NCBI GenBank assembly: GCA_025963875.1
Contig: JAOPZY010000114.1
Location: 1-34,519, forward strand
Length of the DNA: 34,519 nucleotides
Reading direction: 5' to 3'
From: Actinomycetota bacterium
Lineage (GTDB): Bacteria > Actinomycetota > CADDZG01 > JAHWKV01 > JAOPZY01
The position numbers were made by a program, and so were the translations under genes. The notes under the pieces were generated by a model. It had not been told where the DNA came from. It made no database searches and saw nothing but the letters and a program-made list of their open reading frames with translations. Shown one piece after another: positions 5,600 through 30,413 of this stretch. Position 1 is the first letter of the stretch. Every line of letters starts with the position of its first letter.

Positions 5600-5646
5600 T
5601 TCTTTGCGCACCACGATGCGGCAAGCGCAACGGGATTCGCAAAGAA
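5600..5646. repeat. 47-bp palindromic element, copy 1 (TTCTTTG-N33-CAAAGAA)
   Basis: TTCTTTG cgcaccacgatgcg gcaag cgcaacgggattcg CAAAGAA; intergenic. Confidence 0.85.
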
Positions 5647-5657
5647 CCTGCGACCCC

Positions 5658-7001
5658 TCAGTGCAGGACCTCCTCCGGCTCCTCCTGAGCGGCCCGGGCC
5701 GGCCCCGCCTCGTAGACCGGGCGGTGCGTGCGCCAACGCCGCTGGAAGTCGCGGGCACCGAGGCCGAGCAGGTCGGCCACGACCTTGCCCCGTGGGGTGC
5801 CGCCGCGGGCCAGCAGGCGGCCGGCGGCCGTGGAGGCCCGCACCGGGCTGAAGATCCGGAAGGGCCGCTGCTGGTGGAAGGCGACGGCATGGCCGGCCCG
5901 TAGCGTGCGGGGGTCGGCGGCGATGCGGCGGAACATCTCCACGACCACCGGCGACTGGACGCCGGCCCTCCCGAACTCTCTCGCCCACCAGTACATCTCG
6001 GCGGCGTCGTGGTCGCGCCAGCGCCACCACCGGGCCAGCTGGTCGCCGAGGCTGTGGGTGTCGATGCCGTAGCAGGCGTACTCGGCCAGGCGCTCGGCTT
6101 GCCGTATGGCATCGGCGATTCCCTGGCCGGGGGCGGGGTCCTTGAAGTGTCCCGCATCGCCGACGAGGGCCCACCCCGGGCCAGCGGACTCCCGGAAGAA
6201 CCCCTGCCACCGGGAGGCGAACTGAGGCGGGGCCGTCAGCGTCGCTCCCTTGAGCAACGAGGCAAAGGGAGGACAGGTGGCCAGGGCGTCCTCGAAGCCG
6301 TTGCCTTCACGGAACCGGCGGTGGTCGGCCTTGTCGTAGTAAGCCGACGCCATGAACAGGCCACTGTCGGAGGAGGAGCCGATGAAGTAGGTGGACCCGA
6401 GGATGTAGAAGTGCAGGACCCCGTGCGGCTCGACGCCCTCGTAGTACGCGAGGCCGCCCGCCCGTTCGTTCTCCGTCACGTTGTAGCGCCGTGCTCCCAC
6501 CAGGCGGGCGACCGTCGAGTTGCGCCCGTCGGCCCCGATCACGACCCTGGCCCGGATCTCCGAGGGGCGGCCTTCCGGATCCTCGATGCGGACCCCGGTC
6601 ACCCGGCGCTCGTCGTGCAGGAGCCCGACGACCCTGGTCCGAAGGGCGATGTCCGCCCCGGCGGCCTCGGCGTTGTTCAGCAGCAAGGGATCCAGCACAC
6701 GGCGGCGGATGTTGAGCATCGCCATGTCCGGGTGGTCCTGGGTGAGATCGACGTCCTCCACGCGGAGCCGGAATTCGGTCAGCGGCGGGGCGCCGGTGGC
6801 GAGGAGCTGCCCCATCACCCCCAGGCGCTCCAGGCCCTCGAGGTTCTGGAAGAGGTGCGTGGAGAGCGTGTCACTCGGGAACTCGGCCCGCTCGAGGACG
6901 CACACCCCCATGCCGCGTTTGGCCACGTTCGCCGCGAGGGTCGCCCCTGCCACCCGGCCGCCGACGACCACGACGTCGTAGAGCTCGTTCAGAGGGGGCA
7001 C
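5658..7001 (-). CDS. FAD-dependent oxidoreductase (geranylgeranyl-reductase/monooxygenase-like)
   Basis: DVVVVGGRVAG, IGADGRNS, GWALVGDAGHFKDP..GQGIADA. Confidence 0.88.
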   Translation of the reverse strand: MPPLNELYDVVVVGGRVAGATLAANVAKRGMGVCVLERAEFPSDTLSTHLFQNLEGLERLGVMGQLLATGAPPLTEFRLRVEDVDLTQDHPDMAMLNIRRRVLDPLLLNNAEAAGADIALRTRVVGLLHDERRVTGVRIEDPEGRPSEIRARVVIGADGRNSTVARLVGARRYNVTENERAGGLAYYEGVEPHGVLHFYILGSTYFIGSSSDSGLFMASAYYDKADHRRFREGNGFEDALATCPPFASLLKGATLTAPPQFASRWQGFFRESAGPGWALVGDAGHFKDPAPGQGIADAIRQAERLAEYACYGIDTHSLGDQLARWWRWRDHDAAEMYWWAREFGRAGVQSPVVVEMFRRIAADPRTLRAGHAVAFHQQRPFRIFSPVRASTAAGRLLARGGTPRGKVVADLLGLGARDFQRRWRTHRPVYEAGPARAAQEEPEEVLH

Positions 7002-7007
7002 GGGCGG

Positions 7008-7820
7008 CTAGGGGGCCGGGAGGAAGTCCACCAGCAGCCGGTTGATCTCCTCGGGAGCCTCGAGCTGGGCCCAGTGGCCGGGGCCGTCCAGCCGCTCGTA
7101 GCGCCACGATCCGGCGACGTACCGCGCAGAGCCCGTCATCTGTTCCTCGGTGAGGGCCAGGTCGCCGCTGCTCCAGATTCCCATGGTGGGGGCCAGGATC
7201 GGGGGCAGTGCGGGCGGAGGGTCGACCCAGGAGCGGGGAGGCACGTTGGCCCGGTACCAGTTGAGCGCCGGTGTGAGGGAGCCGGACGCCTCGAGTTCGG
7301 CCACGACCGCCGCTGCGTCGGGATGGCCCATCGACCGGGCCCTCGCCCAGTCGTCGGCGCTGAGCCACTCCTCCGCGATCCCCGCGAACTGGAACAGCAG
7401 CATGTACCACGACTTCTCGTACTGGCGTATGCCGGCGGTCCGGAACGACGCGGGGTGGCCCACCGACAGCGCCGCAAGGTGGTCCACGCGGTCGGGGACC
7501 AGGGCCGTCAGCACCCAGGCGAGGGCGGCGCCCCAGTCGTGCCCGACGACGTGGGCCTTCCCGACGCCGAGCGTGTCGAGGATCCCGACCACGTCCATGG
7601 CGAGCAGCGGCATCGCGTAGGCTTCCACCTCCGCCGGCTTGTCGGAGCGGCCGTAGCCCCGCAGGTCGGGGACGACCACCTGGAAGCCGGCCTCGGCCAG
7701 AGCCGGGACCTGGTTGCGCCAGAGTCTCCGACTGTCGGGGAAGCCGTGAAGGAGGACCACCGGGGTGCCGCTTCCGGTGACGTCGAACTCGGTCCCCACG
7801 CCGTTGGCAACGCTACGCAT
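7008..7820 (-). CDS. Alpha/beta hydrolase, epoxide-hydrolase-like
   Basis: LLHGFPD, DLRGYGRS, GHDWG (Asp nucleophile), WY motifs, GHW. Start ATG 7820. Confidence 0.9.
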   Translation of the reverse strand: MRSVANGVGTEFDVTGSGTPVVLLHGFPDSRRLWRNQVPALAEAGFQVVVPDLRGYGRSDKPAEVEAYAMPLLAMDVVGILDTLGVGKAHVVGHDWGAALAWVLTALVPDRVDHLAALSVGHPASFRTAGIRQYEKSWYMLLFQFAGIAEEWLSADDWARARSMGHPDAAAVVAELEASGSLTPALNWYRANVPPRSWVDPPPALPPILAPTMGIWSSGDLALTEEQMTGSARYVAGSWRYERLDGPGHWAQLEAPEEINRLLVDFLPAP

Positions 7821-7845
7821 CGTCGCCAGAGGATACTCTCCAGCG

Positions 7846-9786
7846 ATGTCCGAACTGATCTGGCGGCCCACCGCCGAGTACCTCGACGGCTCCAACCTGT
7901 CCCGCTTCATGGCGCGCTACGGCATCGGGTCCTACGAGGAGATGGTACGGCGCTCCGTCGAGGACGTGGCCTGGTACTGGTCGCAGGTGGAGCGGGACCT
8001 CGGCCTCGAGTGGGACCGGCCCTACGACCGGGTGCTCGACACCCACCAGGGCATCGAGTGGGCAACCTGGTTTGGCGGCGGCCTGATCAACATCGCCCAC
8101 AACTGTGTCGACCGCCACGCCGCTGGCGACGCGGCGGAGCGCACCGCCGTGATCGAGGAACGGGAGGATGGCTCCGTCCGCTCGCTCACCTACCGGGATC
8201 TTGCCGCCGAGGTGGGACGGCTGGCCAACGGGCTGCGGTCGATCGGCATCGCCAAGGGCGACCGGGTCGGTGTCTACCTGCCCATGTGCGTCGAGTCCGT
8301 CGTGTCGATGATGGCCATCGCCAAGATCGGCGCCGTCTACCTTCCGATCTTCTCGGGCTTCGCCCCCGCCGCCGTGGCGGCCCGCCTCGAGGATGCGGGG
8401 GCCAGGGCGCTGATCTCCGCCGACGGCTACACGCATCGTGGCAGGCTGGTTGAGATGAAGGAGGCGGCGGACGAGGCGGCCCACATGATCCATCTCCACA
8501 CGACGCTGATCCTGCGGCACGTCGGGAGGCCGGTGGAGTGGCACCGCAAACACGACGTCGTGTGGGACGAGCTGCTCGCCGAGCAGCCCGCGGAGGCCCC
8601 GACCGAGGCGACCGAGGCCGAGGACGTGTGGATGATCGCCTACACCTCCGGCACCACCGGCAAGCCCAAGGGGGCCGTCCACGTCCACGGTGGCTTCCTT
8701 GTGAAGGTGGCGGCCGAGGTCGCCTACCAGGTGGACTGCAGGCCCGGGGACGTCCTGCACTGGGTCACCGACATGGGCTGGATCATGGGCCCGTGGGAGA
8801 CCGTGGGAACGCTGGCCCTCGGCGGCACGGTGCTCCTGTACGAGGGCGCCCCGACCCACCCCGCGCCCGACCGCCTCTGGGCGCTCTGCGAGCGCCACGG
8901 CGTCACGATCCTGGGCGTGTCCCCGACCCTCATCCGCTCGCTCATGCCGTCGGGCACCGGCCCGGTCGAGGCCCACGACCTCTCGCGGCTCCGCATCCTG
9001 GCCTCCACGGGGGAGCCCTGGAACCCCGAGCCCTACCGCTGGTACTTCGAGCACGCCGGCGGGGGCCGCTGCCCGGTGATCAACCTCTCCGGCGGCACGG
9101 AGATCGGGGCCTGCCTGCTGTCGCCGTACCCCATCACCGAGCTGAAGGTCGCCACGCTGCGGGGTCCGTCGCTCGGCATGGACGTCGACGTGGTCGACGC
9201 CGGAGGCAACCCGGTGCGGGGTGGGGTGGGCGAACTGATCTGCCGGCAGCCGTGGCCCTCGATGACCCGGGGCATCTGGGGCGACCCCGACCGCTACCTG
9301 GCGACCTACTGGTCGGCAATCCCGGGCGTGTGGCGCCACGGGGACTGGGCCTCCATCGACGAGGACGGCTTCTGGTTCCTCCACGGCCGCAGCGACGACA
9401 CGATCAACGTCGCGGGCCGGCGCATCGGCCCCGCCGAGATCGAGTCGGTCCTGGTGGGCGACCCGGCCGTCGTCGAGGCCGCCGTGATCGGCATCCCCCA
9501 CGACGTGAAGGGGGAGGCGCTCTGGTGCTTCTGCGTGCTGGCGGGGGCGCCCGACGAGGGCCTGGCGACCCGTCTGGGCGACCTCGTCGACCGGGCGATC
9601 GGCAGGCCCTTCCGCCCCGAGCGGGTGGTCTTCGTGCCGGACCTGCCCCACACGAGGTCGGCCAAGATCGTGCGGCGGGCCATCCGCGCGGTGGTGCGGG
9701 GAGAAGACCCCGGCGACATCTCGTCGCTGGAGAACCCCGACTCCCTCGCCGTCATCGGAAGCGCCCTGGCATCGCAGCAGGTGTGA
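7846..9786 (+). CDS. Acetyl-/short-chain acyl-CoA synthetase (AMP-forming)
   Basis: YTSGTTGKPKG, TGEPWNP, SGGTE, HGDWA, GRSDDTI, LPHTRSAKIVRR. Start ATG 7846. Confidence 0.92.
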   Translation: MSELIWRPTAEYLDGSNLSRFMARYGIGSYEEMVRRSVEDVAWYWSQVERDLGLEWDRPYDRVLDTHQGIEWATWFGGGLINIAHNCVDRHAAGDAAERTAVIEEREDGSVRSLTYRDLAAEVGRLANGLRSIGIAKGDRVGVYLPMCVESVVSMMAIAKIGAVYLPIFSGFAPAAVAARLEDAGARALISADGYTHRGRLVEMKEAADEAAHMIHLHTTLILRHVGRPVEWHRKHDVVWDELLAEQPAEAPTEATEAEDVWMIAYTSGTTGKPKGAVHVHGGFLVKVAAEVAYQVDCRPGDVLHWVTDMGWIMGPWETVGTLALGGTVLLYEGAPTHPAPDRLWALCERHGVTILGVSPTLIRSLMPSGTGPVEAHDLSRLRILASTGEPWNPEPYRWYFEHAGGGRCPVINLSGGTEIGACLLSPYPITELKVATLRGPSLGMDVDVVDAGGNPVRGGVGELICRQPWPSMTRGIWGDPDRYLATYWSAIPGVWRHGDWASIDEDGFWFLHGRSDDTINVAGRRIGPAEIESVLVGDPAVVEAAVIGIPHDVKGEALWCFCVLAGAPDEGLATRLGDLVDRAIGRPFRPERVVFVPDLPHTRSAKIVRRAIRAVVRGEDPGDISSLENPDSLAVIGSALASQQV

Positions 9787-9816
9787 ACTGTGGTGCGTTT
9801 GAAGCTCGCAGCGATC

Positions 9817-9863
9817 TTCTTTGTATGATTAACCATCATTATCATGTTTATTCATACAAAGAA
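9817..9863. repeat. 47-bp palindromic element, copy 2
   Basis: TTCTTTG tatgattaaccatc attat catgtttattcata CAAAGAA; very AT-rich; the stem extends imperfectly to 9812/9869. Confidence 0.85.
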
Positions 9864-9948
9864 AGGTCGACGGTTCCAGCGGCGCACCAAAATCCGACTA
9901 AACGTTCCGCTCAATCGGAGCGGAGGTATGCGACAGTAACGCCACGCC

Positions 9949-10287
9949 ATGAAGGAGCCGGGAGGGCGGATCCACGGCACGCTCGCCCAGGTCGCTGCCG
10001 CGCTGCCCTCCGACGCGAAGGTGGTCTCCCGCTACGACGTCGGAACGGTACGGTCAGCCTGCCCATTGCTCGTCATCCGGTTCCGCACCGCCGCCGACGC
10101 CCGGACAGTCGTGGCGAACGCCGATGCGGCGCTCACGTCGCTCGGCTGGGCCCCCGTGCCCGACGTCCAGGACGTCGTGTGGTCGAAGAGAGCCGGTGAC
10201 GCATCCGTTGCCGGCCTGGCCCGCCTCGTCCTCGCCCCGGATCCTGCCAGGGCTTGTCGAAGCGAGGAGGAAATTACGCGTATGTGA
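9949..10287 (+). CDS. Hypothetical protein, 112 aa (possibly a remnant)
   Basis: ORF with GC-rich third positions and no recognised motif; its last codons run into the 10259-10309 palindrome. Confidence 0.4.
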   Translation: MKEPGGRIHGTLAQVAAALPSDAKVVSRYDVGTVRSACPLLVIRFRTAADARTVVANADAALTSLGWAPVPDVQDVVWSKRAGDASVAGLARLVLAPDPARACRSEEEITRM

Positions 10288-10309
10288 CGCGCAAAAAACT
10301 CCTCACTTC
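10259..10309. repeat. 51-bp symmetric palindrome with 5-nt centre (second end type)
   Basis: GAAGCGAGGAGgaaattacgcgt atgtg acgcgcaaaaaaCTCCTCACTTC; 23+5+23, no bulges. Confidence 0.7.
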
Positions 10310-10343
10310 TGCCGGCGGCGGGGGACCGGGGGCCCGGGCTGGG

Positions 10344-11048
10344 CTAGACCGCGAGCAGCTTCCGCACCGACTCGTTGGCCAGGCCCTCGGTGGCGCCCTC
10401 GGCAACCACCCGCCCCGCGTCCAGCACCACGTAGCGCTGGGCGAGCCGCAGGGCGAACTCCATGTACTGCTCCACCAGCACGATCGCCAGACCGTTCGTG
10501 GCGTTCAGGTGGGCGATGGCGTTCTCGATCTCGATGATGACCGACGGCTGGATGCCCTCGGTGGGCTCGTCGAGCAGGAGCAGCCGGGGGCGCGTCACGA
10601 GGGCCCGGGCGATGGCAAGCTGCTGCGCCTCGCCGCCGGAGAGGAACCCCGCCTGGCGGCCGAGCAGCTTGCGGAGCTTGGGGAACAGGTCGAGGGCCTC
10701 GTCGAGCGCTGCCTGCCCGGCGGCGACCCCGTGGGGCGACGTCTCGATCACCACCTGCAGGTTCTCCCGCACCGAGAGGCTCGGAAAGCTTGCCCGGCCC
10801 TGCGGGACATAGGCGAGGCCGGCCCTCACCCGCTGGTACGACCGCATGTCCGTGATGTCCCGGCCGTCGAGTGTGATGCGGCCCCGGGAGGCTTTGATCA
10901 CGCCCATCATCGTCTTGATCAGGGTGGTCTTGCCGACGCCGTTGCGCCCCATGACGCACACGAGGGCGTCGTCCGGCACCTCCATCGAGACGCCGAACAG
11001 CACGGTCGTCCGGCCGTAGCCCGACTCGACGCCCTCGACCCTCAACAT
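10344..11048 (-). CDS. urtE: Urea ABC transporter ATP-binding subunit
   Basis: GRNGVGKTT, YVPQGR, LSGGEAQQLAIARAL, LDEPTEGIQPS, LVEQY. Confidence 0.92.
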   Translation of the reverse strand: MLRVEGVESGYGRTTVLFGVSMEVPDDALVCVMGRNGVGKTTLIKTMMGVIKASRGRITLDGRDITDMRSYQRVRAGLAYVPQGRASFPSLSVRENLQVVIETSPHGVAAGQAALDEALDLFPKLRKLLGRQAGFLSGGEAQQLAIARALVTRPRLLLLDEPTEGIQPSVIIEIENAIAHLNATNGLAIVLVEQYMEFALRLAQRYVVLDAGRVVAEGATEGLANESVRKLLAV

Positions 11049-11050
11049 GC

Positions 11051-11812
11051 TCAGCTCACCTCCGAGTGGGCACTGCGGTCGGCGGCCCGGCCCAGGTAGA
11101 CCTCCTGCACGACGAGGTCCGCCTGGACCTCGGCCACGGGCCCCTCGCAGAGGACCTTGCCCTCGTGCAGCACGGTCACCCGGCTGGCGAAGCGGCGCAC
11201 GAAATCCATGTCGTGCTCGACCACCACGAGGGTGCGGGTGAGGGCGATCGCCTGGAGGAGCTCGCCGGTGCGCGTGCGTTCCTCCTTGGTCATGCCTGCC
11301 ACCGGCTCGTCGAGCAGCAGGACCTTCGGGTTCTGCACGAGCAGCATCCCGATCTCGAGCCACTGGCGCTGGCCGTGCGACAGCGTCCCCCCGGGTTTCT
11401 CGGCGAACTCGCGCAGCCCCACCTCGTCGAGCACGCCGGCGATGGCGTCGTCCATGCCCCGCCGCCGGCGCAGGAGCTTGTACACCGGACGGCGGAACGA
11501 CGCCGCAAGGTCGATGTTCTCGACGACGCTGAGCCGCTCGAAGACGGTGGGGGTCTGGAACGTGCGCCCGATGCCCTCCCGGACCACCTCGTACTCCTTC
11601 AGGCCCAGCATCTCCTTGCCCGCGAAGCGCACCGACCCGGCCGCCGCCTTGACGAGGCCGGTGACGGTGTCGATCAGGGTCGTCTTGCCCGCTCCATTGG
11701 GGCCGATGAGGAAGCGGATCTCGCCGTCGGCGATGGTCAGGTCGACGCCGTCCACCGCCCGGAACCCGTCGAAGGACGTCACCAGGCCGCGGATCTCCAG
11801 GATCGCGCTCAC
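11051..11812 (-). CDS. urtD: Urea ABC transporter ATP-binding subunit
   Basis: GPNGAGKTT, FQTPTVF, LSHGQRQWLEIGMLL, VVEHDM. Confidence 0.93.
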   Translation of the reverse strand: MSAILEIRGLVTSFDGFRAVDGVDLTIADGEIRFLIGPNGAGKTTLIDTVTGLVKAAAGSVRFAGKEMLGLKEYEVVREGIGRTFQTPTVFERLSVVENIDLAASFRRPVYKLLRRRRGMDDAIAGVLDEVGLREFAEKPGGTLSHGQRQWLEIGMLLVQNPKVLLLDEPVAGMTKEERTRTGELLQAIALTRTLVVVEHDMDFVRRFASRVTVLHEGKVLCEGPVAEVQADLVVQEVYLGRAADRSAHSEVS

Positions 11813-12936
11813 GCCGGCACCACCTCGTCCTCCAGCCGCTTTGCCTCGTCGGCGGGCGATGCGCCGGGGGAGCCCCGGAGGCGGTCAAGGGCGCTGCGGC
11901 CGTAGCCGACAAGGCCGGCGAGGCCCATCGGGGCGAACCCGATGACGACGACGAAGAGCAGGCCCTCGAGGTAGAGCCAGCCCGAGGGGAACCGGTTGCT
12001 GAGCGAGGTCTTGGCGTAGTTGACGGCAAGGGCACCGATGACGGGGCCGACGAGGCTGGATCTCCCACCGAGGGCCACCAGGATCACCATCTCGATGCTG
12101 GGCACGATGCCGAGCAGGGCGGGGGAGATAATGCCGACCACCGGCACGAAGAGCGCCCCTGCCAGTCCGGCCATGCCTGCCGAGATGCTGAAGGCGATGA
12201 CCTTGATGACCGTGGGGTTGTAGCCGAGGAACCGGACCCGTTCCTCGCCGTCGCGCACGGCAACGAGGAGGCGTCCGTATCGGCTGGCCATGAGCTGCCG
12301 GGCCAGGAGGAACATGGCACCCAGCACGCCCGCGGTGATGAAGTAGAACATCCGCTGGTTCGTGGGATCCGCGAGATCGAGGCCGAAGGCCTGGCTGAAG
12401 TTGGTCAGGCCGTTCGTGCCACCCGTGTAGCCCTGCTCACCGATGAGCAGGATCACGAACGCCGCGGCGAGGGCCTGCGTCAGGATGGCGAAGTAGGCGC
12501 CGCGGACCCGCCGGCGGAAGACCATCGCTCCCAGGCCGGCTGCGACCGCCATCGGCACGACCACGACCGCGGGCAGGGCAATCCAGGCGTACTGGAATGG
12601 CTTCCAGAGCAGCGGCAGCTTCTCGACGCCGCTCCATGACATGAAGTCGGGGACCTTGCCCGGGCCGGCTGCCTGGAGCTTGAGGTACATGCCCATGGCG
12701 TAGCCGCCCAGACCGAAGAACACGCCCTGCCCGAGGCTCAGCATGCCGCCCTGGCCCCAGGCCAGGCCGATGCCGACGGCGATGATCGCGTAGCAGAGGT
12801 ACTTCGTGAACAGGTTGAGGCCGAAGTCGGAAAGCGTCGCCGGGGCGAGCACGAGGAAGCCGAGGGCCACGAGGGCGAAGCCGATCCGTCCGTACCACGG
12901 ATTCCTGGCCCCGCCGCTGGCTCCGGGCATCTTCAT
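11809..12936 (-). CDS. urtC: Urea ABC transporter permease
   Basis: WGQGGMLSLGQGVFFGLGGY, PDFMSWSG, GGTNGLT, PSIEMVI. ATGA overlap with the urtB stop. Confidence 0.93.
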   Translation of the reverse strand: MKMPGASGGARNPWYGRIGFALVALGFLVLAPATLSDFGLNLFTKYLCYAIIAVGIGLAWGQGGMLSLGQGVFFGLGGYAMGMYLKLQAAGPGKVPDFMSWSGVEKLPLLWKPFQYAWIALPAVVVVPMAVAAGLGAMVFRRRVRGAYFAILTQALAAAFVILLIGEQGYTGGTNGLTNFSQAFGLDLADPTNQRMFYFITAGVLGAMFLLARQLMASRYGRLLVAVRDGEERVRFLGYNPTVIKVIAFSISAGMAGLAGALFVPVVGIISPALLGIVPSIEMVILVALGGRSSLVGPVIGALAVNYAKTSLSNRFPSGWLYLEGLLFVVVIGFAPMGLAGLVGYGRSALDRLRGSPGASPADEAKRLEDEVVPA

Positions 12937-13814: not shown

Positions 13815-13845
13815 TCGGCCTCCCTATCTCGGGGAGTAGCTCGTA

Positions 13846-15111: not shown

Positions 15112-15256
15112 GATCCTTGCCCCCCTCAAATCCTTCCCCCCTTCTCTGTCCTGAGCAGACGCTCTGTGTACAGACTCTGTGTACAAAGATGGATACAAAC
15201 TCAGGGCCCAGCCCGGTCCCGCCCAGGTACCATGGCGCGGATGTTAACGGTGGAAT

Positions 15257-15294
15257 GTTTCGCCCAAGATTCAGATTTGTGACGTGGAAGTAAA
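15257..15294 (-). promoter_or_regulatory. GlnR-type binding site upstream of the urt operon
   Basis: Minus strand TTTAC-n6-GTCAC-n6-GAATC-n6-GAAAC, 11-bp periodic, matching the GlnR gTnAc-n6-GaAAc pattern; candidate -10 TAACAT at 15241-15246. Confidence 0.7.
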
Positions 15295-15393
15295 CAAAGG
15301 ACTGGCCGCGGTTGGGGAACCCACCAACCGGGTAGACCGCCCGAATGCCTTCTCGCCCTTGGCTGGGAGTCCTCCGGTTACATTTGAGCCTTC

Positions 15394-19269: not shown

Positions 19270-19284
19270 GACGCACTCCTTTCT

Positions 19285-20682: not shown

Positions 20683-20719
20683 AGCCAGCGATCCCCCCCG
20701 ATGCAGTATCGTCCGCGGC

Positions 20720-22254: not shown

Positions 22255-23078
22255 CGGGCGGCCGCGGCCAGTTGGGCCGCGCCCTGGGGGCACGGGTCCC
22301 CGACGCCGTCCTCCTCGACATCGACGAGCTCGACCTGACCGACGGCGAGGCCGTGGTGGGCATGCTCTGCGACCTCCGTCCGGAGACCATCATCCACGGG
22401 GGCGCCTACACCGCGGTGGACGCCGCCGAGAGCGACCCCGAGGGCGCCCGGGCGGTCAACGCCGGCGGCACCCGAGCGGTGGCCAGGGCTGCCGCAACGC
22501 TGGGGGCCAGGCTCGTCTACATCTCGACCGACTACGTCTTCGGCGGCACGCCGGGAGAGCCCTACCCCGAGGACCACCCCACCGGACCGCTCTCCGTCTA
22601 CGGGGCGACGAAGCTGGAGGGCGAGCAGGCCACCGCCGAGGTGGAGCACCACCTGATCGTCCGTACCTCGTGGGTCTTCGGCGAGGGCAAGAACTTCATC
22701 GGCGCCATCCTGGGCGCGGCCCGCACCCGCGCGGAACTCACCGTCGTCGACGACCAGTGGGGCCGTCCGACCTACGCCGCCGACCTGGCCGGGGGCATCC
22801 TGGAGCTCCTCGATCGGGAGGCGACCGGCACCTTCCATCTCCAGGGTGGGGGGGAGCCCGCAACGTGGGCCGACGTGGCCGAGGCAGCCCTGGCGGCGGC
22901 GGGCTCGGCGACCAGGGTGGCCCGGGTGACGACTGCCGAGTACGATTCGCGCCAGACCGGGCGAACCGCTCCCCGCCCCGCCTTCAGCGTGCTGGACTGC
23001 TCGAAGGCGGCGGGCCTGGGCGTCGCGCTGCGTCCCTGGCGCGAGGCTGTGGAGGAATACGTGAAGGTGACCGCATGA
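22227..23078 (+). CDS. rmlD: dTDP-4-dehydrorhamnose reductase
   Basis: TGGRGQLG, AYTAVDAAE, STDYVF, YGATKLEGE, VDDQWGRPT, APRPAFSVLD. Confidence 0.93.
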   Translation: MELHPRLVVTGGRGQLGRALGARVPDAVLLDIDELDLTDGEAVVGMLCDLRPETIIHGGAYTAVDAAESDPEGARAVNAGGTRAVARAAATLGARLVYISTDYVFGGTPGEPYPEDHPTGPLSVYGATKLEGEQATAEVEHHLIVRTSWVFGEGKNFIGAILGAARTRAELTVVDDQWGRPTYAADLAGGILELLDREATGTFHLQGGGEPATWADVAEAALAAAGSATRVARVTTAEYDSRQTGRTAPRPAFSVLDCSKAAGLGVALRPWREAVEEYVKVTA

Positions 23079-23809
23079 AGGGCGTCGTGCTGGCGGGGGG
23101 CCTCGGCACCCGCTTCCACCCCGTGACGAAGGTCGTCAACAAGCACCTGCTCGACGTGTTCGACGAGCCGATGGTCTTCTACCCCATCCGCACCCTGGCC
23201 CAGGCCGGCATCCGGGATGTGACCCTGGTCACCGGCGAGGACATCTCGCAGTTCAAGCGGCTGCTCGGCGACGGCTCCGATCTGGGCGTGCGGCTCAGCT
23301 ACTCCTTCCAGGAGGGCGAGCGCGGCATCGCGGACGCCCTCTCCCGGGCCGAGGCCCTCGTGCACGGCCACCCGATTGTCGTGATCCTCGGGGACAACAT
23401 CTTCCAGGAGGACTTGGGCCCCTACGTCGAGGCGTTCGGAGACCAGGGCAAGGGAGCGCGCATCCTGCTGAAGCGTGTGTCGCCCGAGGACGCCCGCCGG
23501 TTCGGCGTAGCGGACGTCGCTGACGGCAAGATCCTCGGCATCGAGGAGAAGCCGCAGGCCCCCCGCTCCGACCTCGTCGTCACGGGGTGCTACATGTACG
23601 ACGACCGGGTCTTCGAGATCATCCGCACCCTGGTGCCGTCGCCGCGTGGCGAACTCGAGGTCACCGACCTGAACAACGTCTACATCCAGGAGCACACCAT
23701 GACCTACGACGCCCTCACCGGTTGGTGGACGGACGCCGGGACGCCCGCGAGCAAGCTGAAGGCCTCCATCCTGGTGGCGCTGGAGAAGGGCGTGACCTTC
23801 CACCGATGA
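23075..23809 (+). CDS. rmlA: Glucose-1-phosphate thymidylyltransferase (short form)
   Basis: LAGGLGTR, NKHLL, LGDNIF, EEKP, RGELEVTD, WTDAGT. Confidence 0.88.
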   Translation: MKGVVLAGGLGTRFHPVTKVVNKHLLDVFDEPMVFYPIRTLAQAGIRDVTLVTGEDISQFKRLLGDGSDLGVRLSYSFQEGERGIADALSRAEALVHGHPIVVILGDNIFQEDLGPYVEAFGDQGKGARILLKRVSPEDARRFGVADVADGKILGIEEKPQAPRSDLVVTGCYMYDDRVFEIIRTLVPSPRGELEVTDLNNVYIQEHTMTYDALTGWWTDAGTPASKLKASILVALEKGVTFHR

Positions 23810-23900
23810 GCCTCACCTGATCTGAAGGCTGGGCAGTCGTGCCCGGAGGCTGCGTGCGTCGCATCGACCCCCGGGCACCACTGCAAGCTGCCGGCCCGGG

Positions 23901-23978
23901 TCAGTCGTCGCCGGAGAGCAGGTCCTCGAGTAGTTCCTCCAAGCCTTCCAGCAGGCCCCCCAAGTCTCCGTGATCCAT
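23901..23978 (-). CDS. Candidate 25-aa acidic small protein
   Basis: MDHGDLGGLLEGLEELLEDLLSGDD; GGGGGA RBS-like sequence upstream; GC-rich hairpin directly after the stop (23870-23900). Confidence 0.4.
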   Translation of the reverse strand: MDHGDLGGLLEGLEELLEDLLSGDD

Positions 23979-24094
23979 GCCGTCCCCCGTCTTCTGCCCA
24001 CGATGGGCGCGTGACGTAATCAACGGTAACTAGGCTAAAACGCTTAGCCCGTTCTCTGCAAGCAAGCTGCGCGGATTTAATCTGGGCGCAACAT

Positions 24095-25711
24095 CTATAA
24101 ATACGGACGGTACCGGTTCGTGATGGGAGGGCGGCGGTCACGGCCAAAAGCGCGGCGAGTTATCTTGACGCCGGGCGGTGCCTGCCGGCGCTTGTACTCG
24201 GCTCGGTCCACCATCTCGACCACCCGCTGGACCACGTCGGCCGGGAAGCCGTCGGCGACGATCTCCTCGGGGCTCTGGTCTCCCTCGATGTAGGCCTGCA
24301 GGATGGGGTCGAGGATCTCGTAGGGCGGCAGGGAGTCCGAATCGAGCTGGTCTGCCCGCAGCTCGGCGGTCGGGGGCCGGTCGATCACCTCCTGCGGGAT
24401 CACCTCGGAGTCCCGGTTGCGCCAGCGGCTGAGGTCGTAGACCAGCGTCTTCGGGACGTCCTTCAACACTGCGAACCCGCCGGCCATGTCGCCGTAGAGG
24501 GTGGCGTAGCCGGTCGACATCTCGGATTTGTTGCCGGTCGACAGCACAAGCCGGCCGGTCTTGTTCGAGATTGCCATCAGCAGGTTGCCCCGGATCCGGG
24601 ACTGGAGGTTCTCCTCGGCGAGACCCGGCTCCGTGCCGGCGAAGACCGTGTCGAGCGTCTTCAGCATGACCTCGTAGGCGTCGTGGATCGGGAGGGTGAC
24701 GGTGGGGATCCCCAGCGCGTCCGCCAGCCGCTCCGCCCCGGTGAGGCTCTCCCGGCTGGTGTACTCGCTCGGCATGAGGACGCCGAGGATGTTGCCGGCG
24801 CCGAGGGCATCGGCGGCGACGGCTGCGGTGAGCGACGAGTCGATCCCCCCGGACAGCCCCAGGCATGCCCCGTGGAACCCGTTCTTGCTGAAGTAGTCCC
24901 GGACCCCGATCACGAGGGCCGCGTACACCTCCTCGGCCGATCCCATCTCCCGGGCGATCGGGCCGCCGGCCTGAGCACCCGCTCCAACGTCGTAGACGAG
25001 CAGGTCGTCGGCGAACTGGGGTGCCCGGGCGAGCAGCATCCCACGGGCGTCGAATGCGCAGGACTGCCCGTCGAAGACGAGCTCGTCCTGGCCGCCGACC
25101 ATGTTCACGTAGGCGAAGGCGACCCGGTTCTCCCGGGCGCGGCTGGCGATGAGGCGCTGGCGCTCCCGCCCCTTGCCCATGTGGTAGGGCGACCCGTTGA
25201 TGTTCACGATCAGCTGCGCCCCGGCCGCCGCGCACGCCACGTGGGGGCCGTCCGGGCTCCAGAGGTCCTCGCAGATCGTGACGCCGACGGGGACGCCGGC
25301 CACATCGGCGATGACGATCCCTTTCCCCGCCGTGAAGTACCGCTTCTCGTCGAAGACGCCGTAGTTCGGCAGCAGGTGCTTGTGGTAGACGGCCTCCACC
25401 CGGCCCCCGACGATGACCGCCGCGGCGTTGAAGATCCGGTCTCCGTCCCGGTCCACGAAGCCCACGACCGCCGTGATGCCGTCCGCCGCCGGGGCCAGCG
25501 CCGCCAGGGTGCGAAGGTTGTCCGTGACGAAGGAGGGCCGCAGCACCAGGTCTTCGGGCGGGTAGCCCGTGATGGCCAGCTCCGGGAGGGCGACGAGGTC
25601 GGCGCCGGCCGCCTTGGCCTCGCCGATGGCCAATTCGATCAGCCGGCGGTTCCCCTCGAGGTCGCCTACCGTGGGGTTGTTCTGGGCCAGCGCGATCCGG
25701 ACAGCCGCCAT
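24095..25711 (-). CDS. nadE: Glutamine-dependent NAD+ synthetase
   Basis: Nitrilase domain (PEL..GYPPED, YHK, ICEDLW) plus GLSGGIDS, ENLQSRIRG, TGNKSE, YATLYGD, AEYKRRQAPPG. Confidence 0.97.
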   Translation of the reverse strand: MAAVRIALAQNNPTVGDLEGNRRLIELAIGEAKAAGADLVALPELAITGYPPEDLVLRPSFVTDNLRTLAALAPAADGITAVVGFVDRDGDRIFNAAAVIVGGRVEAVYHKHLLPNYGVFDEKRYFTAGKGIVIADVAGVPVGVTICEDLWSPDGPHVACAAAGAQLIVNINGSPYHMGKGRERQRLIASRARENRVAFAYVNMVGGQDELVFDGQSCAFDARGMLLARAPQFADDLLVYDVGAGAQAGGPIAREMGSAEEVYAALVIGVRDYFSKNGFHGACLGLSGGIDSSLTAAVAADALGAGNILGVLMPSEYTSRESLTGAERLADALGIPTVTLPIHDAYEVMLKTLDTVFAGTEPGLAEENLQSRIRGNLLMAISNKTGRLVLSTGNKSEMSTGYATLYGDMAGGFAVLKDVPKTLVYDLSRWRNRDSEVIPQEVIDRPPTAELRADQLDSDSLPPYEILDPILQAYIEGDQSPEEIVADGFPADVVQRVVEMVDRAEYKRRQAPPGVKITRRAFGRDRRPPITNRYRPYL

Positions 25712-25854
25712 GCGCCCAGCGTACCCGCAGGGTGGTCGGGCCCAGCCCTGGCCCCCGATTCGGTCCTCAGAAATCGACTTTCTGTTTCACCACGAATAGC
25801 GTGGTCAGAGAATCTCGATCCGCTTACGGGTCTGGCTGGTACGCTGGCCATCAC

Positions 25855-26796
25855 ATGTCGGACAAGCTGGTCCTCGTCACGGGCGGAGCAGGATTCATCG
25901 GCTCCACCATCGCGCGCGCCCTCATCGCCGAGGGGACGCCCGTCCGGGTCTTCGACAACCTGATCGCCGGATTCCGCGAGGTGGTCCCGCCTGAGGCCGA
26001 GTTCCGGCTCGGTGACCTGCGCGACCCGGAGGCGATCGGCAAGGCCTGCGAAGGCGTCGACGTTGTCTACCACCAGGCGGCCCTGCGCAGCGTCGCGAAG
26101 TCGGTGGACGAGCCGCTCATCACCGAGGAGTGCAACGTGATGGGCACGCTCAACCTGCTGGGTGCCGCCGAGCAGGCAGGTGTCCGGAGGGTCGTCTACG
26201 CCGCCAGCTCCAGCGCCTACGGCGAGACCACCGAGGGGATCAACCGGGAGGATGCCGCCCCCAACCCGCTGTCCCCCTACGCGGTGAGCAAGCTCGCGGC
26301 CGAGTACTACTGCCGGAACTGGACCGCCCTGCACGGCCTGTCGACGGTGTGCCTGCGGTACTTCAACGTCTTCGGCCCCGGCCAGCACCCGGAGTCGAAG
26401 TACGCAGCCCTGTTCCCCGGCCTGATCTCCGCCCTGACAGCGGGCCGGGCGCCGGAGGTCCACTGGGACGGCGAGCAGACCCGGGACTTCACCTTTGTCG
26501 GCGACGTCGCCCGGGCGAACCTGCTGGCGGCCAAGGCGGACAGCCGGGTCGACGGCCAGGTCATCAACATCGGGGCAGGACGGGCCAAGAGCGTGAACGA
26601 GGTCCTGGCGACGATCAGCGGGATCATGGATCTCTGGATCGAGCCGGTCCGGACGCCCAAGCGCCAGGGCGACGTGCGCAGCACCCTCGCCGACATCACC
26701 CGGGCGAAGGAGCTCCTTGACTGGGAGCCCGAGGCCGAATGGGAAGAGGCGGTCGCTGCCACCGTCGGCTGGTTCACCACCGGCGCCAGGGGCTGA
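25855..26796 (+). CDS. NAD-dependent UDP-sugar 4-epimerase (WbpP/GalE-like SDR)
   Basis: TGGAGFIG, HQAA, SSSAYG, YAVSK, LRYFNVFGP, DGEQTRDF. Start ATG 25855. Confidence 0.9.
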   Translation: MSDKLVLVTGGAGFIGSTIARALIAEGTPVRVFDNLIAGFREVVPPEAEFRLGDLRDPEAIGKACEGVDVVYHQAALRSVAKSVDEPLITEECNVMGTLNLLGAAEQAGVRRVVYAASSSAYGETTEGINREDAAPNPLSPYAVSKLAAEYYCRNWTALHGLSTVCLRYFNVFGPGQHPESKYAALFPGLISALTAGRAPEVHWDGEQTRDFTFVGDVARANLLAAKADSRVDGQVINIGAGRAKSVNEVLATISGIMDLWIEPVRTPKRQGDVRSTLADITRAKELLDWEPEAEWEEAVAATVGWFTTGARG

Positions 26797-26838
26797 GCGC
26801 CGGAAGTTCCCACGTGCCCGCCGACCCCATATAGCTCC

Positions 26839-28731
26839 ATGTGCGGCATCGCAGGCTACGCCGGCAGCAACCCCCCCGACGCCGCCACGCTCCGGCGCAT
26901 GTGCGACGCCCTCGTCCACCGGGGGCCCGACCAGGACGGCTACCTCCTCGGCGACCATGTGGCCCTCGGCATGCGGCGCCTCTCCATCATCGGCGTCGAG
27001 AGCGGGCGCCAGCCCATCTACAACGAGGACCGAACCATCGCCGTCGTCTACAACGGCGAGGTCTACAACTTCACAGAGCTGCGGGCCGAGCTGGAAGGCA
27101 AGGGGCACCGCTTCGCGACCGCCACCGACACGGAGTGCATCGTCCACCTCTACGAGGAGCACGGGGAGCGCTGCGTGGAGCACCTCCGCGGCATGTTCGC
27201 CTTCGCCCTCTGGGACGAGCGCCGGCAGCGGCTCCTCCTGGCCCGGGACCGGGTTGGCAAGAAGCCCCTCCTGTATCGGGCGACGCCCGACGGCATCTGG
27301 TTCGCCTCGGAGCTGAAGGCCCTGCTGCTCGACGAGACGATGCCGCGGGCCGTCGACCCGCTGGCGCTGCACAGCTACCTCACCTACGGCTACGTCCCGG
27401 CCCCCCAGTGCATCGTGGCCGGGGTGCGCAAGCTGCCGGCGGCCCACACGCTCTCATGGCACAACGGCATCGCGGAGGAGCGCCGCTACTGGCGCCTGCA
27501 GTACGAGCCCAAGCAGAGGATCTCAGAGCCCGAGGCGGTGGAGGCGGTGCGGGAGCTGATCCGGGAGGCAACGCGCATCCGCCTGGTGTCGGAGCGGCCG
27601 CTGGGGGCATTCCTCTCGGGAGGCATCGACTCCTCCGTGGTGGTGGCCGCCATGGCCGAGGCGACGTCGCAGCCCGTCAAGACCTTCTCGATCGGCTTCG
27701 AGGACGCCCGCTACGACGAGCGATCCTTTGCCCGCCTCGTTGCAGACCGGTTCTCCACCGACCACGAGGAGCTGGTCGTCACCCCCGACATCGCCGAGCT
27801 GATGCCCCGGCTCACGTGGCACTACGACGAGCCGTTCGCCGACTCCTCGGCCGTCCCGAGCTTCTCCCTCGCCGAGATGGCGCGCCGCCACGTGGTCGTC
27901 GCCCTGAACGGCGACGGTGGCGACGAGTCCTTCGGCGGCTACGACCGCTACGTCGCGCAGCGCCTCGCGGCCCGCATCCACGTCGGGGATTCCGTGGCGA
28001 GGGTGGGCCGCCGGGCGGTGGCGGCGCTGCCGTCCGGCCAGCACCGCTCGTCGATGCGGCGGGTGAAGCGCTTCCTCAACTTCAGCCTCACACCGCCGGC
28101 CACCCGGTACGCCGAGGTCGTCGCCGCCTTCACGAACGCGGACAAGGAGCAGCTCTACTCCGACGAGATGTGGGAGGCGATCGGGGGCCTCGACGCCTAC
28201 GACCTCCTCACCGGCGTCTTCTCCGACTCGGCGGCCACCGACCCGGCCGACGCGGCCATGGACGTCGACGTGCAGACGTACCTGCCCGGCGACCTGCTCG
28301 TGAAGATGGACATCGCCACGATGGCGAACTCGCTGGAGGCGCGCTCGCCGCTGCTCGACCACAAGGTGATGGAGTTTGCCGCCTCCCTGCCGGCGGACAT
28401 GAAGATCCGGGGGCGCACCAGCAAGTGGCTGCTGAAGCAGGCGGGCCGGGGCTGGATCCCCGACGCGGTCCTCGACCGGCCGAAGATGGGCTTCGGGGTC
28501 CCCGTGGCCGCCTGGCTGCGCAACGAGCTGCGGGACCTCGTGCACGACGCCCTCACCGACGTCACCGCCCGAGGCCGGCCCTACTTCGAGCCGGCGACGG
28601 TCGACCGGCTCCTCGAGGAGCACGACTCCGGCGCCGACCACGGCGCCAAGTTGTGGACGCTGCTCTGCTTCGAGCTCTGGCAACGGGCGTTCGTGGACCA
28701 CCTGGCCGTCCCGCCCGTCTGGGAGCCCTGA
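26839..28731 (+). CDS. asnB: Asparagine-synthase-like glutamine amidotransferase
   Basis: MCGIAG, HRGPD, RRLSII, NGEVYN, RDRVGKKPL, LSGGIDSS, EPFADSS, SLEARSPLLD. Confidence 0.9.
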   Translation: MCGIAGYAGSNPPDAATLRRMCDALVHRGPDQDGYLLGDHVALGMRRLSIIGVESGRQPIYNEDRTIAVVYNGEVYNFTELRAELEGKGHRFATATDTECIVHLYEEHGERCVEHLRGMFAFALWDERRQRLLLARDRVGKKPLLYRATPDGIWFASELKALLLDETMPRAVDPLALHSYLTYGYVPAPQCIVAGVRKLPAAHTLSWHNGIAEERRYWRLQYEPKQRISEPEAVEAVRELIREATRIRLVSERPLGAFLSGGIDSSVVVAAMAEATSQPVKTFSIGFEDARYDERSFARLVADRFSTDHEELVVTPDIAELMPRLTWHYDEPFADSSAVPSFSLAEMARRHVVVALNGDGGDESFGGYDRYVAQRLAARIHVGDSVARVGRRAVAALPSGQHRSSMRRVKRFLNFSLTPPATRYAEVVAAFTNADKEQLYSDEMWEAIGGLDAYDLLTGVFSDSAATDPADAAMDVDVQTYLPGDLLVKMDIATMANSLEARSPLLDHKVMEFAASLPADMKIRGRTSKWLLKQAGRGWIPDAVLDRPKMGFGVPVAAWLRNELRDLVHDALTDVTARGRPYFEPATVDRLLEEHDSGADHGAKLWTLLCFELWQRAFVDHLAVPPVWEP

Positions 28732-28732
28732 G

Positions 28733-29890
28733 GTGCGAGTCCTGCGGGTCATCACGAGGCTGAACATCGGGGGCCCCGCCCGGCAGGCCCTGATGCTGCA
28801 CCGGGTGCTGCCCGAGCGCGGTTACGAGTGCGAGCTGGTGTCGGGGGCGCCGCAAACGGAGGAGGGGGCGTTCCCACCCCCGGCCGAGCGCTACACCCTG
28901 GTCGAGTCCCTGCGACGGGAGACGGACTTCCTCGCCGACGCCCGTGCGATCCACACGCTCACCCGCCTGATGCGGGCGAGCCGCCCGGACGTCGTGCACA
29001 CCCACACCACGACCGCAGGGGGCCTCGGGCGCATCGCCGCCCGCCGGGCCAAGGTCCCGGTGACGGTGCACACCTTCCACGGTCACGTCCTGTCCGGCTA
29101 CCTCTCCGGCCCGCAGACCAGGGCGCTGACGGCGGCCGAGCGTGCCCTGGCGAAACGAACCGATGCGCTGGTGTCGGTCTCCACCCGGGTGCGCGACGAG
29201 CTGCTCGCCCTCGGCATCGGCAGGCCCGAGCAGTGGCGGGTCGTCCCGCTCGGCCTCGAGCTCGGCGAGCTCCTCGGTGGGCCGGCGGAACGCTCCGCGT
29301 CGCGCGCGGCCCTCGGCCTGCCCCCGGAGGCGCCGCTCGTGGGCATCGTCGGGCGCCTGGCTGCGATCAAGGACCACGGCACGTTCCTGGCGATGGCGGC
29401 GAGGCTGGCGGCAGCCCGCACGGACGTCTCCTTCGTCGTCGCGGGCGACGGAAGCCTGCGGGGGTCCCTGGAGGCGGAGGCGAAGTCCCTGCTCGGCAAC
29501 CGGATCCGGTTCCTGGGTTGGGCGACCGATCTGCCGGTGCTCTACGGCGCCCTCGACGTGGTGGTGCTCACCTCCCGCAACGAGGGCACCCCGGTTGCGC
29601 TTATCGAGGCGGGGGCCGCGGGCCGTCCGGTGGTCGCAACCGACGTCGGCGGCGTGGCCGAGGTCGTCCGCGACGGTGCGTCGGGATTCGTCGTGCCGCC
29701 CGGCGACGCGGCGGCACTGGCGGCCCGGGTGGGCACCCTCCTGGACGACCCCGAGGCGGCCCGGGCGATGGGCCTGGCCGGGCGGGAGTGGGTGCGGGCC
29801 CGCTTCGGCTCGGAGCGCCTCGTCGATGACCTGACCGCCCTCTACGGGGAGCTGACGGACGCCCGAGGCGCCCCTCGAGGCGCCGGATGA
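28733..29890 (+). CDS. Glycosyltransferase family 4
   Basis: ITRLNIGGPA, HTFHGH, GRLAAIKDH, SRNEGTPVALIEA, TDVGG. Confidence 0.92.
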   Translation: MRVLRVITRLNIGGPARQALMLHRVLPERGYECELVSGAPQTEEGAFPPPAERYTLVESLRRETDFLADARAIHTLTRLMRASRPDVVHTHTTTAGGLGRIAARRAKVPVTVHTFHGHVLSGYLSGPQTRALTAAERALAKRTDALVSVSTRVRDELLALGIGRPEQWRVVPLGLELGELLGGPAERSASRAALGLPPEAPLVGIVGRLAAIKDHGTFLAMAARLAAARTDVSFVVAGDGSLRGSLEAEAKSLLGNRIRFLGWATDLPVLYGALDVVVLTSRNEGTPVALIEAGAAGRPVVATDVGGVAEVVRDGASGFVVPPGDAAALAARVGTLLDDPEAARAMGLAGREWVRARFGSERLVDDLTALYGELTDARGAPRGAG

Positions 29891-30097
29891 GAATCGCAAA
29901 TAGGCGCGGATTGGTTGTAAGCTTCCCAACAGAAGTGTTCTGCTCGCGGAAGGGGGTGATGTCCGCTATGAGATGAGCTTGCGTTGGAACCGTCCTCGTC
30001 CGGCACTGCCGGATCCCAGAGAACTCAGGACGGACCCCTGTTTCTCGTTTCGAATTCCTTTCAGGTCACCCTTCACATCATCTCAGAGGAGAAAAAG

Positions 30098-30295
30098 ATG
30101 GCTAACCAGTACGCATGTGCGAACGCCGGTGCCTCGACGTGTGGCTTCCGGACCACCTGGACCGACGAGGCCGACCTCCGGCGCCAGATCGCCAACCACC
30201 TGGTGACGGTCCACGAGGTCAAGACCCCGACCGCGACGATCGTGAACTACCTCGTCAAGGTCGCCAAGGACATGTCGGGCCAGGTCCAGCACTGA
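30098..30295 (+). CDS. DUF1059-like small putative metal-binding protein, 65 aa
   Basis: MANQYACANAGASTCGF...DEADL..QIANHLVTVH (C-x7-C...H-x4-H). RBS GAGGAG. Confidence 0.75.
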   Translation: MANQYACANAGASTCGFRTTWTDEADLRRQIANHLVTVHEVKTPTATIVNYLVKVAKDMSGQVQH

Positions 30296-30310
30296 GCACC
30301 GCAGCGTTAT

Positions 30311-30349
30311 GACGAGGCCGGGCCCGTGGGCCCGGCCTCGTTGCATTTC
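30311..30349 (+). terminator. Intrinsic terminator-like hairpin
   Basis: ACGAGGCCGGGCCC-GT-GGGCCCGGCCTCGT followed by TGCATTTC. Confidence 0.7.
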
Positions 30350-30366
30350 TAGAGCCCAGGTCACTT

Positions 30367-30413
30367 TTCTTTGAGTATGAAACGACGCTGTACGTCGATC
30401 TATGCTCAAAGAA
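30367..30413. repeat. 47-bp palindromic element, copy 3
   Basis: TTCTTTG agtatgaaacgacg ctgta cgtcgatctatgct CAAAGAA. Confidence 0.85.

Follow-up and report, generated by a model that had tools for sequence, protein, structure and literature searches.

A dispersed family of 47-bp palindromes in Actinomycetota genomes, and its predicted relationship to AbiEi-like/Vsr-like proteins

Short dispersed palindromes and a protein associated with them are familiar from the repetitive extragenic palindromes (REP), the REPINs and the RAYT proteins (PMC3116915, PMC3337134). A palindromic site of a different kind is the operator of AbiEi; according to PMC7319586, AbiEi monomers bind two inverted 23-bp repeats that lie 3 bp apart (49 bp in total) at the promoter of their own gene. 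The subject of the present analysis is a 47-bp palindrome (hereafter 47-mer) of the form TTCTTTG-N33-CAAAGAA, three copies of which are found in a 34,519-nt stretch of DNA from an Actinomycetota bacterium (contig JAOPZY010000114.1; hereafter the window). The window is the whole of contig C165 of the source genome, G000 (3.84 Mb, 69% GC, 273 contigs); below, G-numbers denote the genomes compared, C-numbers contigs and L-numbers loci. The 47-mers are a strongly non-random, widespread and polymorphic repeat family, and they are predicted to be the multiplied double-stranded binding site of a family of AbiEi-like/Vsr-like proteins. No description in print was found of the 47-bp element, nor of DUF559/AbiEi_4 proteins in connection with dispersed palindromes.

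All three palindromes lie in the window where a previous reading, made from the sequence alone, had placed them (elements 1–3; Table 1), while 100 dinucleotide shuffles of the window returned none (mean 0.00). When TTCTTTG and CAAAGAA were paired at every spacing from 0 to 200 throughout G000, 59 exact copies were obtained at N33, one at N32 and one each at N126, N180 and N185, with no exact pair at any other spacing in that range. The enrichment at N33 that the sequence-only reading had proposed to look for is therefore present genome-wide (59 versus at most one elsewhere). The single motifs occur 108 (TTCTTTG) and 105 (CAAAGAA) times in G000; the other TTCTTTG sites (76 on both strands) mostly look like chance occurrences, with about six decayed copies among them. 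In a relaxed search that allowed up to two mismatches in the 14 fixed bases, N33 rendered 59, 15 and 6 copies with zero, one and two mismatches, respectively (∼80 in total), the surrounding spacings (30–37) giving 0–8; a peak seen at N29 was an artefact of 47-mers overlapping themselves. The reversed pattern, used as a control, gave no match in any of 113 genomes of the class.

Grouped by interior, the 59 exact copies form clusters of 36, 12, 8 and 3 members (clusters 1–4). The interiors of the window elements had been called unrelated; each has relatives elsewhere in G000, and the apparent lack of relationship arises because every one of the three comes from a different subfamily (clusters 3, 1 and 2, in the order of the elements). 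Across 114 distinct elements pooled from G000 and published relatives (two loci from unpublished genomes were left out), 65.9% of the 14 inner pairs were Watson–Crick, compared with 35.4% when the partner arms were swapped (standard deviation 1.4, maximum 39.6% in 500 trials) and 23–31% in shifted registers. The interiors are thus self-complementary far above the controls, and the earlier description of a dispersed family that keeps its length, ends and symmetry while its interior turns over stands. Pairing in the pooled elements was good at stem positions 8–11 and 16–21 and poor at positions 12–15. In the 59 exact copies, the 21 stem positions comprised 983 Watson–Crick, 57 G.T, 55 A.C and 144 other combinations, and mismatches peaked at positions 12–14 (42 and 41 of the 59 copies at positions 13 and 14). 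Elements 1, 2 and 3 have 10, 11 and 10 inner Watson–Crick pairs of 14, element 3 having two further G.T pairs, and as single strands are predicted to fold with energies of −15.0, −10.1 and −14.4 kcal/mol (z = −4.2, −5.1 and −6.5). The bulge-free 21+5+21 hairpin that had been proposed for them is correct in its register, but the predicted folds contain internal loops near stem positions 12–15. The layout can be written as 21-5-21, or as 23-1-23 when flanking pairs are counted: the symmetry of cluster 1 extends 4 nt past the 47-mer (RAnC before it, GnTY after it), and cluster 4 is flanked roughly by gaATA and TATtc.

Among 41 relatives, exact copies were most numerous in G000 (59), G001 (35), G002 (34) and G004 (34), those of G004 forming a burst of near-identical copies; two sister genera had none, and four genomes of another family had 1–4. 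The class-wide tally, which takes in the unpublished genomes G027, G030, G074, G080, G081 and G093, came to 24 carriers in 113 genomes: G000 and three of five others in family f1, none of 20 in f2, none of one in f3 and 20 of 86 in f4. A search of all species genomes beyond the class gave at least 121 stretches, to be taken as examples and not as a census. The matches listed were mostly chance occurrences in AT-rich taxa; the palindromic, high-GC ones among them came from metagenome-assembled genomes labelled Actinomycetota, Acidimicrobiales, Actinomycetes and Candidatus Aeolococcus, which held 64, 17, 8, 53 and 1 copies. Copy number among relatives ranges from 0 to 64.

Individual copies were seen to be present or absent between strains as well as between species, as the comparison of orthologous loci suggested by the sequence-only reading made clear. 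Element 1 is missing from soil metagenome contigs that are ∼99% identical to the window in its flanks (three runs from three studies), where a 35–38-nt spacer stands in place of window positions 5573–5664. No RNA run was among those listed as containing the stretch. Element 2 is kept in one X2 contig, and one X5 contig skips positions 9792–9880; the similarity of other copies to this element stops mainly at 9816 and 9863, a few left ends lying at 9810–9814. In G001 the loci orthologous to those of elements 1 and 2 have no element, two other element sites of G001 are empty in G000, and two orthologous sites are filled in both genomes, with perfect ends, interiors ∼60% identical (counted by eye) and compensatory changes. 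Clean empty sites could not be defined between G000 and G001 since, at ∼85% identity, their intergenic DNA has diverged. Within G000, some 47-mers are embedded in larger noncoding repeats, M1 (∼280 nt) and M2 (∼130 nt), and the element found in five other M1 copies is missing from the one on C73, which makes this a paralogous empty site. The difference there is 47 + ∼2 nt, within an AT-rich near-palindrome (one clean case). As a single case, the gene order of G001 locus L047, compared with C208:1749 and C150:22096 of G000, breaks exactly at the G001 element.

The copies in G000 are scattered over more than 50 contigs, clusters being seen only on C208 (three within 550 bp, each from a different cluster of interiors) and C79 (two). 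Considering the flanking sides of exact copies for which a gene could be called, 49 of 71 face a gene 3′ end and 22 a 5′ end, and for 11 of the 59 copies the two neighbouring genes converge. According to the crude gene calls used for context, an element lies near the stop of 43 and near the start of 26 of 3022 genes. The neighbouring genes showed no common theme, and no common neighbour was found for the single-copy elements of other genera (two of these loci being from the unpublished genomes G027 and G030).

When open reading frames (ORFs) within 2.5 kb of elements were clustered, one recurrent neighbour emerged, a protein of ∼310 amino acids assigned by Pfam to AbiEi_4 plus MTES_1575/DUF559; the latter is treated as a Vsr-fold restriction-endonuclease domain in PMC3710099. 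A profile of 12 family members matched PDB entries 3hrl (E = 3e-4) and 3r3p (E = 0.07). The G116 copy was modelled with AlphaFold2 (pLDDT 86.4), and the model gave structural matches to AbiEi (6y8q; E = 7e-7 over 201 columns) and Rv2827c (1zel; E = 5e-5), and also to the catalytic domain of I-Bth0305I (3r3p; E = 8.5e-3), AbaSI/PvuRts1I, Vsr and 3hrl. As modelled, the family protein is an AbiEi-like winged helix and AbiEi C-domain joined to a Vsr/homing-endonuclease-like domain. Between 3 and 24 copies of AbiEi_4-DUF559/MTES_1575 proteins were detected in most genomes searched; counts based on PF04480 were unusable, since this family is matched too weakly by the Pfam model.

Of the 24 family loci in G000, seven have a TTCTTTG element that lies at or overlaps the 5′ end of the gene. 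Compared with 26 of 3022 crude gene calls this gives a Fisher odds ratio of 47 (P = 2.7e-9), a figure to be read with the non-independence of paralogs in mind, the seven being in part duplicates of each other. In each of two further genomes, G116 and G114, which were reached through other contigs, a pair of 47-mers within ∼1.07 kb encloses one family gene. The bracketed gene of G116 sits between pth and mfd (named from translated ORFs); that of G114, which has unrelated ORFs as neighbours, is the best G114 match to the G116 copy (37% identity), in a genome with 8 elements and 8 family genes in all. Profile searches for the family found, beside elements, three full copies and one fragment in G001, and one copy each in G004 and G046. 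In total, a family member was found directly beside an element in six of eight genomes checked, and flanked by elements on both sides in two. No cognate enzyme is encoded in the window itself, as had been stated; this nuclease-like candidate lies outside it. The idea of a trans-acting nuclease or recombinase thus gains a candidate family beside the elements, but the search for its two suggested models, an HUH/RAYT transposase and an integron integrase, came out negative (see below).

Many family genes have a palindrome of their own. One of 31–53 bp (score ≥10) was found between −80 and +40 of the start at 10 of 20 family loci of G000, compared with 15 of 287 random genes, and at 9 of 23 family genes in five genomes without dispersed elements. 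Many of these palindromes are built alike, running from an outer arm through T-rich sequence to a GC-rich inner stem around a centre of 3–5 nt, and their end motifs differ. A tree of the G000 proteins showed three clades (S1, S2 and S3), each with 95–100% support, and the class of palindrome tracks the clade of the protein: S1 has cluster-1 operators, S2 has TTCT[T/G]TG and S3 has other ends. The nuclease motif D..ExDG..H is kept in the bracketed copies of G116 and G114 and in the copy on C263 of G000. It was also observed that the reading frame of clade S1 genes starts inside a 47-mer at C174:1180–1226, C96:13847–13893 and C97:3049–3095 of G000; CAAAGAA-GCT-CAG reads K-E-A-Q, and on C97 the gene is divided between two frames.

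The 47-mer is read here as an AbiEi-like operator because its geometry is that of the AbiEi site, because the evidence favours half-sites and because it is associated with the gene. Each element would consist of two inverted half-sites of ∼21–23 bp around a centre of 1–5 bp, with the outer TTCTTTG and the GC-rich inner segment constrained and positions 12–15 free. By analogy with AbiEi, one monomer may bind each half-site, and the cognate proteins are probably members of the ∼310-amino acid AbiEi_4 + DUF559/MTES_1575 paralogous family, many of which keep their own palindrome at the gene start, presumably an operator for autoregulation. The TTCTTTG class of operator would, in some lineages, have been copied as a discrete unit of ∼47–49 bp, to reach 30–80 copies per genome, landing in tolerant intergenic DNA, mostly just past stop codons; the nuclease domain, or recombination between copies, may have driven the copying. 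The paralogous empty site on C73, the strain-level absences and the empty site between species are all consistent with such behaviour as a discrete unit.

That the site would be recognised as a duplex of two half-sites, and not as a folded strand, is favoured by several features of the arms. G.T and A.C combinations are about equally frequent (57 versus 55), and there is no excess of wobble pairs on the sense strand (14 G.T versus 24 A.C, n = 27). Within tight subfamilies (cluster 3, cluster 4 and the subsets from G004 and G116), changes in one arm are independent of those in the other; covariation is seen in the mixed cluster 1. In G116, two types of outer arm combine as XX, XY and YY in ∼14, 30 and 5–9 of 52–53 copies, as counted by eye. 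Together with the likeness to AbiEi, these observations lean away from the single-stranded hairpin on which the sequence-only reading had based its proposal; that reading was right in proposing a dispersed family and gained a nuclease-like candidate, but it was not supported as regards HUH/RAYT enzymes and integron integrases.

Several observations weigh against the multiplied-operator interpretation. Most of the ∼80 copies in G000 are away from family genes, and TTCTTTG elements adjoin only one of seven family genes in G116, one of eight in G114 and none of 10 in G040 (which has four elements). G113, a genome with no completeness figure, has 17 elements and no family match at E ≤1e-8. The gene on its own does not predict dispersal, since genomes without dispersed elements still carry 3–13 family genes. 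The recognition helices of the TTCTTTG-adjacent proteins are not obviously alike in an alignment read by eye, in G000 clade S1 the E-x-D-G of the nuclease motif is replaced by EPRG, and in G116 an aldo/keto reductase, not a family gene, lies between a second pair of close elements. Finally, the interiors covary across subfamilies, which a hairpin model explains equally well. Taking both sides together, we consider it somewhat probable that the 47-mers are the multiplied double-stranded binding site of the AbiEi-like/Vsr-like family. A bolder version, which we regard as possible but doubtful, is that they represent a new kind of mobile DNA, in which an operator palindrome would be cut and copied by its own AbiEi-like/Vsr-fold nuclease. 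The DUF559 family would then act as a transposase or homing enzyme, the 47-mer–gene–47-mer arrangement would be the autonomous form and solo 47-mers its miniature progeny, as a counterpart of REP-RAYT with a different class of enzyme.

The palindromes could instead be single-stranded hairpins of the REP or attC sort, cut at a conserved stem base by a structure-specific recombinase or transposase that moves the copies. The interior pairing, well above both of its controls, would be expected of them, as would the compensatory changes in orthologous copies of G000 and G001, the conserved stem base followed by a poorly paired middle (the attC layout), the negative fold z-scores (−4.2 to −6.5) and the prevalence of sides that face gene 3′ ends (49 of 71). 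However, the enzymes were not found in the carriers: PF01797 (Y1/RAYT) had no match in G000, G001, G002 or G004, its positives being five of 41 relatives, all of family f2, which is without the elements; and the integron integrase (TIGR02249) was above its cut-off in seven of the 41 genomes, all of them element-free members of f2 or f3 (including the unpublished G007), and in none of those from f1 and f4. Moreover, G.T is not favoured over A.C, four of five sets show no covariation within the subfamily, and the XY hybrids of G116 would pair only at positions 1–8 and 16–21; nor are the 47-mers arranged in tandem cassette arrays. This explanation was judged unlikely. Less likely still is that they behave like miniature inverted-repeat transposable elements (MITEs), with two terminal repeats, almost nothing in between and mobilization by a DDE transposase acting in trans; family genes would then carry, or have donated, a look-alike operator. 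A discrete unit with ∼2 extra nt at one clean empty site, the near-identical burst in G004 and the patchy copy number among relatives would suit a MITE, but a long element bounded by the same arms was found in neither G000 nor G004 (in the latter, nearly all arms are in 47-mer pairs, the few unpaired ones being at contig ends or having a partner with more than two mismatches). The flanks show inverted, not direct, similarity, no consistent target duplication was seen in them, and MITEs do not typically keep an exact length of 47 bp in many subfamilies and in genomes that carry the labels of different orders or phyla. The only multicopy insertion sequence seen, a TnpB-only element with three copies, was rejected as a source, its ends being unrelated to the 47-mers.

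Two further explanations dispense with mobility or with DNA recognition. If the elements were host-function sites, selected and non-mobile, for a large regulon or a chromosome-organizing protein, one would expect orthologous copies with perfect ends, and such copies exist, with interiors ∼60% identical by eye; single copies persist across many genera, and some lie in promoter regions, e.g. 38 nt before the Phd-PIN pair of the window. The fact that most copies face gene 3′ ends, that near-identical strains differ in their presence, that sister genera have none and that the neighbouring genes share no theme makes this as improbable, in our view, as the MITE-like account. A role at the RNA level, as 3′ stabilizing hairpins, processing sites or unusual terminators, would agree with stable hairpins located just past stop codons and frequently (11 of 59) flanked by convergent genes. 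It appears very improbable, given that the window elements have no U-tract (the sequence-only reading had already set them apart from intrinsic terminators on these grounds) and instead have a T-rich run 5′ of the stem, that the tolerance of G.U expected on the sense strand was not seen (14 G.T versus 24 A.C, n = 27) and that some copies overlap start codons. As for a described RNA family, Rfam gave no gathering-score match in the window and nothing at E ≤0.01 in 10 other loci, and at two elements only weak, generic hairpin matches.

The window elements and their flanking genes are listed in Table 1. Element 1 follows the monooxygenase stop codon by 11 nt and precedes the start of a 200-amino acid ORF by 26 nt, both genes being on the minus strand; element 2 follows the acetyl-CoA synthetase stop codon by 30 nt and precedes a 112-amino acid orphan ORF by 85 nt; element 3 is 38 nt 5′ of the start of the toxin–antitoxin pair. 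Element 3 had been said to follow a separate terminator: the GC-rich hairpin upstream of it is real, but its weak T-tail fails the T-run rule of the terminator scan.

Table 1. Coordinates of the 47-bp elements in the window and of the features next to them (a dot in the strand column: no strand)
Feature	Position	Strand	Basis
Element 1: 47-bp element, subfamily 3 (inner TTGCGG..CCGCAA type)	5600..5646	.	pattern match, clustering
Flanking FAD-dependent monooxygenase	5658..7001	-	context only
Flanking acetyl-CoA synthetase-like AMP-binding enzyme	7765..9786	+	context only
Element 2: 47-bp element, subfamily 1 (AT-rich interior, 21% GC)	9817..9863	.	pattern match, clustering
Separate GC-rich hairpin, 13-bp stem, outside the 47-mer family, after a DUF1059-like ORF	30312..30341	+	fold
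Element 3: 47-bp element, subfamily 2 (inner CGACG-N5-CGTCG)	30367..30413	.	pattern match, clustering
Flanking Phd/YefM antitoxin + PIN toxin pair	30452..31118	+	context only

Other repeats were encountered in the course of the analysis. The modules M1 (six copies) and M2 (four copies) are interleaved with 47-mers at locus L030 (C208:4336–4745), and further copies occur on C20, C73, C79, C129, C140, C113, C240 and C202 of G000. M1 has T-loop-like GGTTCGAA motifs; neither module matched Rfam or a tRNA, and a scan of the repeat-rich loci for tRNA and tmRNA found none. A second, unrelated dispersed GC-rich repeat of ∼28 nt is present in the window at 29861–29888, in the 3′ end of a glycosyltransferase gene (28733–29890), with 85 short-blast matches in G000 and ∼50 in G001, often as tandem pairs ∼33 nt apart; a GGCGCC hairpin resembling this repeat occupies the place of element 1 in G001. 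The three copies of the TnpB-only insertion sequence (C117:835–2390, C240:1495–3051 and C26:8591–10145 in G000) are 88–90% identical and have ends of the CTAGTGC..GCACTAG type, and no Y1 TnpA gene was found in G000. The relatives positive for an integron integrase, all from the actinobacterial class, were G007 (unpublished), G008, G014, G015, G017, G018 and G022. Integrons are rare in the phylum Actinomycetota.

Should the multiplied-operator interpretation be correct, the 47-mer would be the first concrete DNA target for AbiEi_4-DUF559/MTES_1575 proteins, for which no described DNA site or dispersed repeat was found in the literature. It would also introduce a second class of enzyme among the systems composed of a host-resident protein and short palindromes, the known one being REP-RAYT. 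The main new point is the link to a large, uncharacterized nuclease-like family, and the exact 47-bp spacing with its invariant heptamers makes the idea directly testable. Even on a modest reading, the elements mark strain-level variation in uncultured soil Actinomycetota.

In outline the 47-mers resemble REP-RAYT systems. Both consist of short, imperfect palindromes, mostly extragenic, in tens of copies and several subfamilies per genome; in both, the base of the stem has a conserved motif and the repeats can flank their cognate gene. In contrast to REP-RAYT, the carriers have no Y1/HUH gene, the motif is TTCTTTG and the length is fixed at 47 bp; the candidate protein is a winged helix with a Vsr-like nuclease, and duplex half-sites are favoured. 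The stem-base motif of REP sequences is GTAG. With attC sites the 47-mers have several features in common: the base of the stem carries conserved 7-nt boxes, the middle is unpaired, the inner stem pairs although its sequence varies, and shape is conserved above sequence. The consensus of the attC boxes is RYYYAAC/GTTRRRY, which the boxes of the 47-mer do not fit; furthermore, no IntI was found in the carriers, and the 47-mers are dispersed and not in arrays, symmetric and of fixed length. They are therefore members of neither the REP-RAYT nor the attC class. As regards the protein, its C-terminal domain is matched by the catalytic domain of I-Bth0305I (PDB 3r3p; PMC3239194), and both genes look selfish and are lodged in intergenic DNA among housekeeping genes. 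Unlike I-Bth0305I, the family gene has no intron or intein context, and it is bracketed by whole sites, with no single site being split. The closest likeness in geometry is to the operators of AbiEi and Rv2827c, of the type IV toxin–antitoxin systems, which according to PMC7319586 are inverted ∼23-bp repeats with a short gap (23-3-23, i.e. 49 bp), located at the promoter of their own gene and bound by monomers through the N-terminal winged helix. A 47-mer in the equivalent position was found at the seven G000 loci described above and in G001, G004, G114 and G116. No AbiEii-type toxin gene adjoins the family gene at L219 or L221, unlike in AbiE systems, DUF1814 itself, the nucleotidyltransferase of that toxin, not having been searched for. 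The AbiEi-like protein described here folds like AbiEi in its AlphaFold2 model but is fused to a nuclease domain, and its predicted binding site, unlike an AbiEi operator, has been multiplied, dozens of copies lying elsewhere than at the gene.

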